From: an uncultured Gemmatimonadales bacterium
GTDB taxonomy: Bacteria > Gemmatimonadota > Gemmatimonadetes > Longimicrobiales > RSA9
Direction: 5' to 3'
NCBI GenBank assembly: GCA_963708135.1
Contig: OY970192.1
Location: 1,408,001-1,472,000, forward strand
Length of the DNA stretch: 64,000 nucleotides
In this document: in pieces, positions 27,316-30,488 of the stretch
Layout: each line of letters opens with the position of its first letter
Position numbering within the stretch: position 1 is the first letter of the stretch
Program-made: the position numbers and the translations under genes
Notes under the pieces: model-generated
What the model was told of the DNA's origin: nothing
Database searches by the model: none
The model's input: the letters and a program-made list of their open reading frames with translations, nothing else

Positions 27316-28707
27316 ATGGCCCGAATCGAAGTGTCAATGCCACAGATGGGGGAATCGATCGCGGAAGGCACCGTGTCGAAATGGCTCAAGCAGCCGGGCG
27401 ACGCCGTAGCGCGCGACGAGCCGCTGCTCGAGATCTCGACCGACAAGGTGGACGCGGAGGTTCCTTCTCCGGCCGCCGGAGTGCTCGCGGAGATCGCGGT
27501 GCAGGAGGGCCAGACGGTCGAGGTCGGCACCGTGGTCGGCTACATTGAGACCGAGAAGGGAGCCGCGGCCGAGAAGGCGCCGCCGGCCGCCGAGCCGCCA
27601 GCCGCCGAGCCGGAGCCCGCTCCCGCGGCGGCTGCGGCTCCGGCCGCGGCCGCGCCCCCCGCCGCGCCGGAGCCGGCGCCGACGGCGGCTGCCCCCGGAG
27701 GGCAGGGCGATGGGCGAACCGAGAGCGCGGAGGAACGCCTCCGCCGCCGGTCCACCCCGGTGGTGCGCCGGATCGCGGCGGAGCACGGCGTGGACCTGGC
27801 GCAGGTGACGGGCACCGGCCACGCGGGCCGGGTCACCAAGCAGGACATCATGGCCTTCCTCGAGAGCCCGGTCCAGGGGGGTGGAGCGCCGCCGCCTGTG
27901 ACCGCGGCGCCGCCCGTGCCGGCCAAGGCTGCCGGAGCGCCGGCCTCGATGGATCAGTTCTGGGAGGCGTTCTACGGTCGCGTGCAGCATCCGGAGTTCC
28001 CGGTGCGGGCGGGCGACCGGGTCGAGCCAATGGACCGGATCCGCAGGCTGACGGCGGACCACATGGTGCGGGCGAAGCGGATCGCGCCGCACGTGCACTC
28101 CTTCATCGAGATCGACTTCACGGCCATCGACCGGGTCCGCTCCGCGAACAGGGAACGCTGGGAGCAGCAGGGCGTGAAGGTGAGCTACACGGCCTTCGTG
28201 GCCTGGGCCTGCGCGCGCATGCTGCAGCGCTTCCCGATGGTGAACGGTACCATCTCGGGCGAGAACATCATCTACCGTGGCGACATCAATCTCGGCATCG
28301 CCGTGGACCTGAATCCCGGACTGATCGTGCCGGTGATCAAGAACGCCGACGAGCTGAACCTGATCGGGATCGCGAAGCGTGTGGCCGACCTGGCGCAGCG
28401 CGCCCGCAACCGGCAGCTCAAGCCCGACGAGATCCAGGGCGCGACCTTCTCGATCACCAACCCCGGGGTGCTCGGGACGATCGTCGGCATGCCAGTCATC
28501 CCGGAGGGCACCTCCGCCATCCTCGGGACCGGCGTGATCGAGAAGCGCGCGGTCGTGATCGATGTCGACGGGGCGGACGCGATCGCCGTGCGGAAGCGGG
28601 CGTTCTTCTCGCTGGGCTACGACCACCGGCTCGTGGACGGGGCGGACGCCGCCCGCTTCCTGGCCGAGCTGAAGGCCCTGCTCGAAGCGTTTCCCGAGGA
28701 CGCATGA
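27316..28707 (+). CDS. Dihydrolipoamide acyltransferase E2 (single lipoyl domain)
   Basis: MPQMGESI.EG, STDKV lipoyl lysine, E3-binding TP.VRR.A.E..GTG..GRVTKQD, DHRLVDG. Confidence 0.96.
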   Translation: MARIEVSMPQMGESIAEGTVSKWLKQPGDAVARDEPLLEISTDKVDAEVPSPAAGVLAEIAVQEGQTVEVGTVVGYIETEKGAAAEKAPPAAEPPAAEPEPAPAAAAAPAAAAPPAAPEPAPTAAAPGGQGDGRTESAEERLRRRSTPVVRRIAAEHGVDLAQVTGTGHAGRVTKQDIMAFLESPVQGGGAPPPVTAAPPVPAKAAGAPASMDQFWEAFYGRVQHPEFPVRAGDRVEPMDRIRRLTADHMVRAKRIAPHVHSFIEIDFTAIDRVRSANRERWEQQGVKVSYTAFVAWACARMLQRFPMVNGTISGENIIYRGDINLGIAVDLNPGLIVPVIKNADELNLIGIAKRVADLAQRARNRQLKPDEIQGATFSITNPGVLGTIVGMPVIPEGTSAILGTGVIEKRAVVIDVDGADAIAVRKRAFFSLGYDHRLVDGADAARFLAELKALLEAFPEDA

Positions 28708-29468
28708 GCAGCCCGGCGGGCCTCGGCACCGCCCTCGCCCGGCGGCCCGAGCCGGCCGGGAACGCGATGCCGCGGGTCCTCGAGGTCTGTCGCCTCGGCA
28801 CGGTGGAATACGGCGAGGCCCTGGCGCTGCAGGACACGCTGGTCCGTCGCCGTCGCGCGCGGGAGATTCCCGACCAGCTGCTCCTCCTCGAGCATCCGCA
28901 CGTGATCACCCTCGGTGCCGCCGCCCGAGAGGAGCACGTGCTGCTCGATGCCGCCGAGCGCCGGCTCCTCGACATCGCGCTCTTCGAGACAGGGCGGGGA
29001 GGCGATGTCACCTACCACGGGCCGGGGCAGCTCGTGGGCTACCCGATCCTCGACCTCAAGCCCGACCGTCGCGACCTGCACCGCTACGTCCGCGACATCG
29101 AGGAGGCGCTCATCCGCGCCCTCGTGACCTTCGGGATTGCGGGCGGCCGGCGGCCGGGCCTCACCGGCGTCTGGGTCGGCGATGAGAAGGTCGTCGCCAT
29201 CGGGGTCCGCGTCTCCAGCGGCTGGATCACCTCGCACGGGTTCGCCTTCAACGTCGACCCCCGCCTCGAGTTCTTCGACGCGATTGTGCCGTGCGGGATC
29301 CGGGAGTTCGGCGTCACCTCGCTCGCCCGGCTGCTGGGGCGACCGGTCCCGGTCGACGCGGTCATGGAGCCGGTCATCGAGGCCTTCAGCGAGGTGTTCG
29401 GACGGGTCGCGCGCGCCGGGGGCCGAACTCCCCCCGAAGGACTTGAAGCCGGGGCCGATCTCGGCTAG
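28704..29468 (+). CDS. lipB: Lipoyl(octanoyl) transferase
   Basis: LEHPHV.TLG, RGGDVTYHGPGQLVGYPI, K..AIG, HGFAFN, IVPCG. Confidence 0.97.
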   Translation: MSSPAGLGTALARRPEPAGNAMPRVLEVCRLGTVEYGEALALQDTLVRRRRAREIPDQLLLLEHPHVITLGAAAREEHVLLDAAERRLLDIALFETGRGGDVTYHGPGQLVGYPILDLKPDRRDLHRYVRDIEEALIRALVTFGIAGGRRPGLTGVWVGDEKVVAIGVRVSSGWITSHGFAFNVDPRLEFFDAIVPCGIREFGVTSLARLLGRPVPVDAVMEPVIEAFSEVFGRVARAGGRTPPEGLEAGADLG

Positions 29469-29471
29469 CTT
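29443..29471 (+). promoter_or_regulatory. Sigma70 promoter overlapping the lipB stop, pointing into the non-coding region
   Basis: TTGAAG-N17-TAGCTT; same -10 as the moaD promoter. Confidence 0.65.
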
Positions 29472-29477
29472 GTCAGC

Positions 29478-29790
29478 ACGCGTTCGGGAGTCGCGGTCGA
29501 TCTCCTGGATGTGGCCGGGCCGGCGGACGTCGCCGGACGGCGTGCTCGGAAGGGAGTTCGGCCCTGACGAGACGGCTGCGGGGTCGCTGGTCGCAGCCGA
29601 AGCCCCACGAGCTCGGGGCGGCCTCGAACGCAGACCGCGCGCTACGAGGTGAGGGATTCGTTACCAGACCGCCGCACGCGGTGGTGAACCGGAACGAAGG
29701 AACGATCCCGCCAGCGGAAAGAAGCCCCCAGAACGCTGCGTGTCAGCGCCTGGGGGCTTCTCACATCCGGGAGGCACTCTCTCACCGCGC
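29478..29790 (+). ncRNA. Candidate large structured ncRNA (~300 nt), family not recognised
   Basis: Own promoter; 12-bp closing helix 29502-29513/29762-29773; seven internal stem-loops; two loop-complement pseudoknots; G-U pairs favour the + strand. Confidence 0.72.
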
Positions 29791-29828
29791 GGCCTCACGC
29801 CACCGGTGGCGCGCGCGCCCCTCCGCTG

Positions 29829-30419
29829 TCAGGGGGGCGGCGCCGGGTGGAAGGCGTCCCCGGGCGGCGGCGGGAACTCGTGGAACTCGAGGTAGCGCCC
29901 CTTCTCCCGCTCGCGCTCGAGCCAGGCGGTGAAGCCGGAATCCATGAGGCCGTTGGACTGGCTCTGCGTGCGCGCGGCGCTTACGGCCAGATCGTTGGCG
30001 TACTCGTTCTGGGGATGGCCGGCGTGGCCCCGGACCCAGCGCCAGTCCACCTCGTGGCGGGCGGCCGAACGGACGAGCCGTTGCCACAGCTCTGCGTTCT
30101 CCACGGGCCCGGTCTTCCGCTTCCAGCCACGGCGCACCCAGCCGCGGACCCACTCGCGCATTCCCCGCACGAGGTACTGCGAGTCGGAGGTGAAGATCAC
30201 GCGGCAGGGGGTGCGCAGCGCCTCGACCGCCTCGAAGGCGCTGCGGATCGCCATCCGGTTGTTGGTCGTGGCGGGCTCGCTCACCCAGTAATCGCGCCGT
30301 GCCCACGCGTTCCCGCGCCACTGCTCGATGAGGCCGGCCGCCCCGCCGGGCGAGTCGCGATCGGTGAACTGCACGCCGAGGCAGGACTCATCGGCGTAGA
30401 TGTAGACCAGGGGTCGCAT
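29829..30419 (-). CDS. rnhA: Ribonuclease HI
   Basis: IYADESC.G...PGG, TTNNRM, TSDSQY, W.WVRGHAGHPQNE.A.DLA. Confidence 0.95.
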   Translation of the reverse strand: MRPLVYIYADESCLGVQFTDRDSPGGAAGLIEQWRGNAWARRDYWVSEPATTNNRMAIRSAFEAVEALRTPCRVIFTSDSQYLVRGMREWVRGWVRRGWKRKTGPVENAELWQRLVRSAARHEVDWRWVRGHAGHPQNEYANDLAVSAARTQSQSNGLMDSGFTAWLEREREKGRYLEFHEFPPPPGDAFHPAPPP

Positions 30420-30460
30420 GGGGCGCCAAGTTCGCCTCGCCGGTCCCACGGCGCAACCGC

Positions 30461-30488
30461 TTGACAGGTGTTCGGGCCGGCGTAAATT
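30461..30488 (+). promoter_or_regulatory. Sigma70 promoter of carA
   Basis: TTGACA-N16-TAAATT. Confidence 0.55.

Follow-up and report, generated by a model that had tools for sequence, protein, structure and literature searches.

Large, information-rich bacterial RNAs are rare, and RNase P, tmRNA, the glmS ribozyme and the riboswitches have each revealed new biochemistry. 6S RNA is a rod of about 180 nucleotides (nt), formed from paired ends around a large central bubble, which binds the sigma-70 holoenzyme and templates product RNA (pRNA); in mycobacteria, Ms1 is its stand-in. Some of the OLE, ROOL and GOLLD RNAs have been reported to assemble through loop-loop contacts. Gemmatimonadota, a phylum common in soils, is barely cultured, and it is to this phylum that the RNA described here belongs. 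The window analysed is a 64,000-nt stretch (contig OY970192.1, positions 1,408,001 to 1,472,000, assembly GCA_963708135.1) from an uncultured Gemmatimonadales bacterium, and positions 29478-29768 of its forward (+) strand, between lipB and rnhA, very probably make up a gene in its own right, whose product is a structured non-coding RNA (ncRNA) of about 290 nt. With the same high confidence, held jointly for both statements, the family to which it belongs is confined to one class of Gemmatimonadota within what was searched. This family matches no described RNA family and was seen only in Gemmatimonadota within the Rfam 15 models, genomes and literature searched. An earlier reading of the letters of the window (hereafter the original prediction) had proposed a stand-alone, tertiary-structured large ncRNA at this place, and the proposal has stood: the predicted gene has its own promoter and terminator-type hairpin, paralogues lie at unrelated loci, and both helices and pseudoknots covary.

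The raiA motif RNA is described as an abundant, stand-alone, structured bacterial RNA of a few hundred nucleotides with pseudoknots (PMC10861870, PMC12968392). The new RNA resembles it in standing alone, in its apparent abundance, in its length, in being highly structured with pseudoknots, in keeping a conserved syntenic position and in having an unknown biochemical function; it differs in its phylum, in its helices, in being multi-copy and in matching no Rfam model, raiA included. With 6S RNA and Ms1 it shares apparent abundance and a strong promoter of its own, and canonical 6S RNA is undetected where the new RNA occurs; unlike them, it has neither a rod-and-bubble architecture nor conserved end pairing. 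Like OLE, ROOL and GOLLD, it is large, information-rich, of unknown or poorly known function and found by comparative analysis, but it is smaller (about 290 nt), has no Rfam match and was seen with neither associated protein genes nor a prophage context. The RsmX/Y/Z and CsrB RNAs also come as several paralogues per genome, some in tandem, and are strongly transcribed; in contrast to them, the new RNA lacks a repeated array of GGA hairpins, its fold is one compact unit, and CsrA was not found in its genome.

At gathering thresholds, the 4227 models of Rfam 15 gave no matches in the whole window and none in 20 homologous loci, as the claim of novelty had anticipated; at E up to 10, weak hits fell on the terminator hairpin only (22.4 bits at best, where the threshold is 70). 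No published description of the RNA was found in the full-text literature, whose coverage leaves out subscription journals and supplements. RNase P RNA (C1:3382505, 257.7 bits), tmRNA (C1:1854512, 166 bits) and a match resembling the signal recognition particle (SRP) RNA (C1:953877, 32.9 bits, below cut-off) lie elsewhere in the genome, and the 6S model RF00013 has no match in it at E up to 1, which agrees with the earlier statement that the RNA is none of these four.

Predicted fold and long-range pairings

In the predicted structure, checked pair by pair with a script (95 pairs, 18 of them tertiary), the RNA is a chain of eight hairpins (P1-P8) tied together by three long-range pairings (PK1-PK3; Table 1). 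All complementarities listed in the original prediction are present; its seven hairpins correspond to P2-P8, each of which persists in relatives with substitutions at both partners of its pairs. P1 is a predicted addition to that set and takes the place of the closing helix proposed earlier.

Table 1. Predicted features of the RNA gene and its two neighbours (positions in the window; H1-H7, hairpin names in the original prediction)
Feature	Positions	Strand	Earlier name	Remarks
Predicted RNA, whole (about 290 nt)	29478-29768	+		start inferred from promoter; end inferred from terminator hairpin and conserved tail
Promoter	29434-29471	+		upstream CCGAAGGAC; -35 TTGAAG 29443-29448; 17-nt spacer; -10 TAGCTT 29466-29471; overlaps last lipB codons
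P1	29479-29513	+		5' hairpin, 12 bp, 4 G-U; 29479-29490 with 29502-29513; loop 29491-29501 has GCGGUC
P2	29514-29541	+	H1	apical loop GACGU; GACG-type tetraloop in most relatives
P3	29545-29571	+	H2	loop has UUCGG 29557-29561; 4/4 pairs changed on both sides, 96.6% of cells paired
P4	29573-29599	+	H3	loop GGGUCGCUGGU; 7/7 pairs changed on both sides, 97.2% paired
P5	29602-29619	+	H4	4/4 pairs changed on both sides, 92.3% paired
P6	29622-29649	+	H5	loop has GACCGC 29633-29638; 7/7 pairs changed on both sides
P7	29653-29709	+	H6	base 29653-29657 with 29705-29709; apical stem 29668-29674 with 29679-29685; 13/13 pairs changed on both sides
P8	29722-29759	+	H7	G+C-rich terminator-type hairpin; pairs covary
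3' tail CUCACAUCC	29760-29768	+		CUUC-NNN-CAUCC kept within own family (alignment, tails)
PK1	29493-29498 with 29633-29638	+		P1 loop GCGGUC with P6 loop GACCGC
PK2	29557-29561 with 29689-29693	+		P3 loop UUCGG with CCGGA in P7 internal loop
PK3	29584-29590 with 29711-29717	+		P4 loop UCGCUGG with CCAGCGG in P7/P8 joint
lipB	28704-29468	+		upstream neighbour, outside RNA; Pfam LplA-B_cat, E 5.3e-45
rnhA	29829-30420	-		convergent downstream neighbour, outside RNA; Pfam RNase_H, E 5.4e-29

The helices P3-P7 were counted on a model-made alignment of 56 hits, 52 of them distinct. Over the 52 distinct sequences, 91.7% of the cells in the 37 modelled pairs were paired, as against 73.1% after shuffling and 41-48% with slid partners; all 37 pairs had changed on both sides, and none of 500 shuffles reached any of the observed measures. 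For P1 and P8, covariation is seen among 20 copies aligned with MAFFT without fitting to a structure, and there seven of the eight RNAalifold pairs of P1 show changes on both sides; P1 is also present in the minimum-free-energy fold. When 51 homologues are folded singly, 50 of them form a P2 hairpin with 6 bp or more; its loops are mostly GACG, with GAAG, GAGA, GCAA, GACA and GAUA among the others. In most relatives P6 carries a tandem G-A/A-G internal loop, and the internal loop of P7 contains CCGGA, the downstream strand of PK2. Many unpaired nucleotides are invariant across the copies in the alignments, and the length differences among homologues are insertions and deletions inside loops. 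Folding energy adds little: the original prediction had looked to stability beyond that of shuffles, and the sequence does fold better than these, if modestly (z -2.81), with much the same value on the opposite strand (-2.86), so that the structural support comes from comparison and not from energy. Two unpublished genomes (G016, loci L008 and L029; G019, locus L014) contribute rows to the alignments A1-A4 and to the helix and pseudoknot counts; the conclusions rest on no unpublished genome alone (G015, G016, G019, G026).

PK1 was tested by seeking the exact Watson-Crick partner of each P6-loop six-mer in a fixed 24-nt upstream window, six rows with a gapped six-mer being omitted. The fixed window was chosen because the cross-group MAFFT alignment (A4) misaligned the P1 loops of the distant group; an earlier control had been confounded by a core motif common to many loops (cognate mean 5.76, non-cognate 4.94). 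An exact 6-bp partner was found in 26/45 cognate as against 15/1208 non-cognate combinations, and in 33/45 as against 196/1208 when G-U pairs were allowed. Among the 17 rows with a non-consensus six-mer, none has the consensus partner GCGGUC and seven have the matching one (10 with G-U). The variant pairings of PK1 include ACGGGA/UCCCGU, ACGAGA/UCUCGU, GCGGUG/CACCGC and GCGGCC/GGCCGC. Three more rows have the partner about 35 nt further upstream, in the bulge of a longer P1.

The other two long-range pairings were counted on columns that the alignment model leaves unpaired. PK2, a predicted third pairing which the original prediction had missed, is 96.8% paired with four of its five pairs changed on both sides (e.g. 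UUGGG/CCCAA, AUCAG/CUGAU, UUGAA/UUCAA), and PK3 is 96.2% paired with four of seven so changed (CACUGG/CCAGUG, CGCCGG/CCGGCG, UUGCUGG/CCAGCAG, CGCUGU/GCAGCG). Together they are 96.4% paired, compared with 25-51% for slid partners, and eight of their 12 pairs changed on both sides, compared with 2.6 +/- 1.0 after shuffling, a count of eight being reached by none of 500 shuffles. Within the organism's own genome, the PK1 and PK3 sequences differ between paralogues yet match inside each copy. The two long-range complements noticed at the outset, PK3 and PK1, thus proved to be covarying pairings, and across the compared sequences all three predicted tertiary pairings are kept by compensatory changes.

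The original prediction had also drawn an end-to-end closing helix (29502-29513 with 29762-29773, extended by 29486-29491 with 29776-29781) around a seven-arm multibranch fold. This complementarity exists in the present copy, but it is not conserved. In 38 sequences, after 13 rows without a recognisable terminator pattern had been dropped, cognate ends paired no better than non-cognate ones (-20.8 against -21.6 kcal/mol; Mann-Whitney p 0.86), and the helix would compete with the covarying P1, whose 3' strand is the segment 29502-29513. A conserved closing helix was therefore rejected. Since the end pairing is not conserved and uses the 3' strand of P1, there is no multibranch junction closed by the ends, and this part of the proposed topology is not borne out.

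The loops of P2 (GACGU, 29526-29530), P7 (CACG, 29675-29678) and P8 (CGUGU, 29739-29743) have a common ACG/CGU core, and the apical loops of P2 and P7 are well conserved. Such loops could be a repeated protein-binding site or make tetraloop contacts.

Promoter, copies and distribution

The promoter TTGAAG-N17-TAGCTT lies where it had been claimed, and comparison of the copies indicates a predicted strong sigma-70-type promoter with a family-specific upstream motif. The pattern CGAA(A/G)G(A/G)CTTG, about 17 nt, TAnnnT stands at a fixed distance from P1 in 20 of 21 listed copies (by eye), with further CGAA repeats upstream of it. In the whole 5.4-Mb genome, the motif GAA[AG]GNCTTG-N18-21-TAnnnT has four sites, three of which are at RNA copies, and the remaining two own-genome copies have a one-base variant of it. 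What follows the fourth site (G000:C1:~3508390-3508447, - strand) is not an RNA copy but a stretch richer in A+T and a small reading frame of about 59 codons.

At the other end, P8 is followed by a U run in relatives outside the organism's own family, e.g. UUUCUUUUUUUUUC. In the present copy the tail reads CUUCUCACAUCC, and a simple terminator scan made no call. The conservation downstream of the stem in the own family, where CUUC-NNN-CAUCC replaces the U run, is unusual; no pairing that would explain this tail was found. The possibility that the last hairpin is merely the rnhA terminator, which had been named as the outcome that would undo the proposal, does not agree with conservation that spans the whole 290 nt and not P8 alone. 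The + strand is assigned from the promoter, the terminator and the many G-U pairs, such as the 31 U-G at one P6 pair, which on the opposite strand would be A-C mismatches.

A BLAST search of positions 29440-29830 against the own genome returned a second copy of 77% identity and part of a third, and matches were found in 21 of 41 genomes (the own one plus 40 relatives); within the same family the count was 17 of 24, frequently with several matches to a genome. With R1, a covariance model of the RNA core, the own genome holds five full-length copies and one weak partial match (E 0.005). With R2, a second model made from the 56 hits, the RNA is present in 32/40 genomes of the own family (the unpublished G015 being counted among the 40) and in 27/32 high-quality ones, with one to five copies each. 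Two or three copies often stand in tandem, in the same orientation and within 0.4-2.5 kb; several own-family pairs are 400-1800 bp apart. Tandem examples in relatives are G012:C2:1339901-1342531, G009:C2:193902-195654 and G019:C9:52971-53545. Two own copies (G000:C1:5256524-5256702 and 5366492-5366670) are identical, lie 110 kb apart and are part of a 540-bp duplication that is 98% identical; sub-threshold, tRNA-sized hits of the tmRNA model occur at 5.358-5.380 Mb, near the latter copy.

In a sample of the phylum (151 genomes, strict filters), 21 genomes have the RNA; by family (f1 to f12 being our labels), the counts are f1 1/1, f2 9/16, f5 9/31, f4 1/71 and zero in eight other families. A search for divergent f4 copies gave 1/41 with the model, and BLAST with the f4 copy gave four short hits, all at or below 13 bits (noise). 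The plasmid and phage collections hold no similar sequence. A motif scan of genome contigs, which does not bound the distribution and in which the matches listed are mostly chance in high-GC genomes, led to 80 fetched loci: at least eight score at E 3e-11 or better, and four more are weak (E 0.0009-0.0074). Among the eight listed, seven are labelled Gemmatimonadota, Gemmatimonadales, Gemmatimonadetes or Longimicrobiales, and one 'uncultured bacterium'.

Genomic setting and metatranscriptome contigs

The open reading frames and Pfam matches uphold the original description of the gap between lipB and rnhA as one without a credible + strand gene, and of rnhA as convergent; in this window no same-strand gene follows the RNA. 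At the ancestral locus, the order is E2 acyltransferase, lipB, RNA, rnhA (convergent) and carA (13 loci, families f1 and f2). The paralogues are next to genes for ABC transporters, M28-PDZ peptidases, HEAT/cyclophilin and MscS proteins, amidohydrolases and others, and no flanking gene common to the RNA locus types was found in the flanks of the compared loci (for the last 20 loci, 79 of 165 frames were scanned). Because the downstream gene is convergent here and the paralogues adjoin unrelated genes, the RNA is best regarded as a stand-alone gene.

Genes of 2-oxoacid dehydrogenases directly precede the RNA in two locus types besides the ancestral E2-lipB one. One own-genome copy (G000:C1:4171216-4171394, L152) lies between E2 and E3, antisense to both, and the L160 copy has an E1 gene directly before it; nine further loci, the ancestral one apart, have no such neighbour, and this adjacency may be chance. 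Elsewhere in the window, a near-consensus promoter (TTGACA-16-TAAATT, 30461-30488; 10/12 matches, where shuffles expect 0) is found just upstream of carA, within the longest carA frame, which starts at 30418. Since it sits inside that frame, the true carA start is probably further downstream than 30418.

In four of four metatranscriptome runs (three studies), the conserved core is covered by contigs at 80% likeness or more, the longest coverage being 29514-29654 (run X2) and 29514-29649 (X3). Single-contig word depth amounts to 1029.8 (X14), 671.6 (X2) and 657.4 (X7), and the listed contigs of the lipB part stand at 2-7; summed depth over the bin 29563-29613 is 1182 (X2), 17838 (X3), 7171 (X7) and 197937 (X14). 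The loose ends of these contigs resemble P5 and P6 of family members, so the core contigs come from relatives and not from this organism. Outside 29514-29654, the RNA is uncovered at 80% likeness, which is expected from divergence and says nothing on transcript ends. These contigs are suggestive of an RNA family that is transcribed and abundant.

Possible roles

Of the roles considered, the most likely, put forward tentatively, is that of a protein-binding scaffold or decoy: the RNA would act in trans as a compact, abundant folded particle and would serve as scaffold or decoy for a protein partner. The conserved nucleotides are almost all used in building one compact fold. Several points count against this reading or against the gene itself. 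Fitting the alignment of the nested helices to the structure inflates their paired percentage, and the relatives in the covariation counts are not independent. Both predicted ends of the RNA are deduced from promoter and terminator. The family is patchy (f4 1/41 and 1/71, f2 9/16, f5 9/31), and the RNA is therefore not essential to the class. Only one sequencing run, made from soil DNA, contains most of the stretch, and small shares of it occur in ten RNA runs; contig depth is a poor measure of expression which cannot rank genes, and RNA libraries can contain DNA. Finally, nothing points to a protein partner: no common neighbour gene was found, nor were CsrA, Hfq and Ro/TROVE.

One challenge to an independent gene would be a cis-acting element: a lipB 3' untranslated region (UTR), a riboswitch-like leader, or an rnhA or lipB terminator with chance structure. 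The RNA does directly follow lipB at the 13 ancestral loci of f1 and f2, and a same-strand gene for an AMP-binding enzyme follows it in two closely related genomes (L156, L157). Nevertheless, the conserved promoter of its own, paralogues at loci without lipB, the convergent downstream gene and conservation of the whole 290 nt beyond P8 make such an element very unlikely, and a riboswitch or cis-regulatory leader, examined as a candidate, does not fit an RNA whose downstream gene is convergent and whose neighbours vary between paralogues. Least credible of all is that the sequence is a repeat, a small protein gene or a miniature mobile element. Multiple copies, two of them in the 98% identical 540-bp duplication, would suit this, but the syntenic position is kept across genera and the plasmid and phage collections gave no match; the substitutions in the helices are compensatory and not codon-like, and the length varies by loop indels. 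A base-pairing regulatory small RNA (sRNA), in which conserved unpaired segments, for example the CAUCC of the 3' tail or the A/G-rich joint before P8, would be the seeds, appears improbable. Like many sRNA families, the RNA occurs in several copies, some of them tandem paralogues, and it is equipped with a promoter and a terminator of its own; however, its conserved nucleotides are almost all in internal pairings, and eight helices in some 290 nt go far beyond what seeds require. In addition, CsrA (PF02599), Hfq (PF17209) and Ro60/TROVE (PF05731) were each sought in the genome (97.65% complete) and not found, so that a Csr-type sponge, an Hfq-dependent sRNA and a Y RNA are disfavoured. Overall, a role as base-pairing sRNA or cis-regulator is probably not the right one.

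Two further explanations, both of which we consider doubtful, concern what the folded particle itself might do. It might be an Ms1-like stand-in for 6S, that is, an abundant RNA polymerase-binding RNA in a class without a findable canonical 6S RNA. In the phylum sample, RF00013 hits only f3 (1/2, the sole hit being the unpublished genome G026), f10 (4/13), f11 (3/3) and f12 (3/3), and none of the 119 sampled genomes of f1 (0/1), f2 (0/16), f4 (0/71) and f5 (0/31), the only families of the sample with the new RNA; in that class, 6S RNA may be either very diverged or absent. The strong sigma-70-type promoter and the high contig depth in RNA libraries would fit this idea as well. Yet the 6S search fails in 9 of 14 control genomes too, the complementary distribution is one phylogenetic event, and neither RNA is found in 70 of the 71 sampled f4 genomes, so that the 6S RNA of the class may just be too diverged for the model. 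The gene ygfA, sought as a synteny anchor for a hidden 6S RNA, was not found in the genome. Moreover, the fold is not of the 6S type, and a 6S rod was rejected: the consensus consists of eight local hairpins, the ends are not conservedly paired and RF00013 gives no hit. Equally unlikely in our estimation is a catalytic RNA or an RNA-only assembly, in which the loop-loop pairings would form an active site or a homo-oligomer. The high information density, the many invariant unpaired nucleotides and the three covarying tertiary pairings are what such an RNA might show. The fold lacks a closing stem, and segments of the 5' half meet their partners in the 3' half without a change of order (1-6, 3-7, 4-7/8, read 5' to 3'), a topology equally possible between molecules, where paralogue-specific matching of the pseudoknots would keep species apart. 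Covariation, however, cannot tell intramolecular from intermolecular pairing, no known ribozyme family matches, and calling the RNA a ribozyme is pure conjecture. The boldest combination of these ideas is a large bacterial RNA of a new class, in which the three loop-loop pairings would form a ribozyme or a self-assembling particle, and which soil and sediment Gemmatimonadota would produce in very high amounts, possibly in the place of 6S; we give this speculation a small chance.

The RNA is a defined and testable object, for which a partner protein, catalysis or assembly can be sought. Contigs of its core are found in soil and sediment RNA libraries, and it can serve directly as a marker of Gemmatimonadota transcripts in metatranscriptomes. 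A replacement of 6S RNA by this RNA, if true, would also be relevant to the tuning of transcription in that class.

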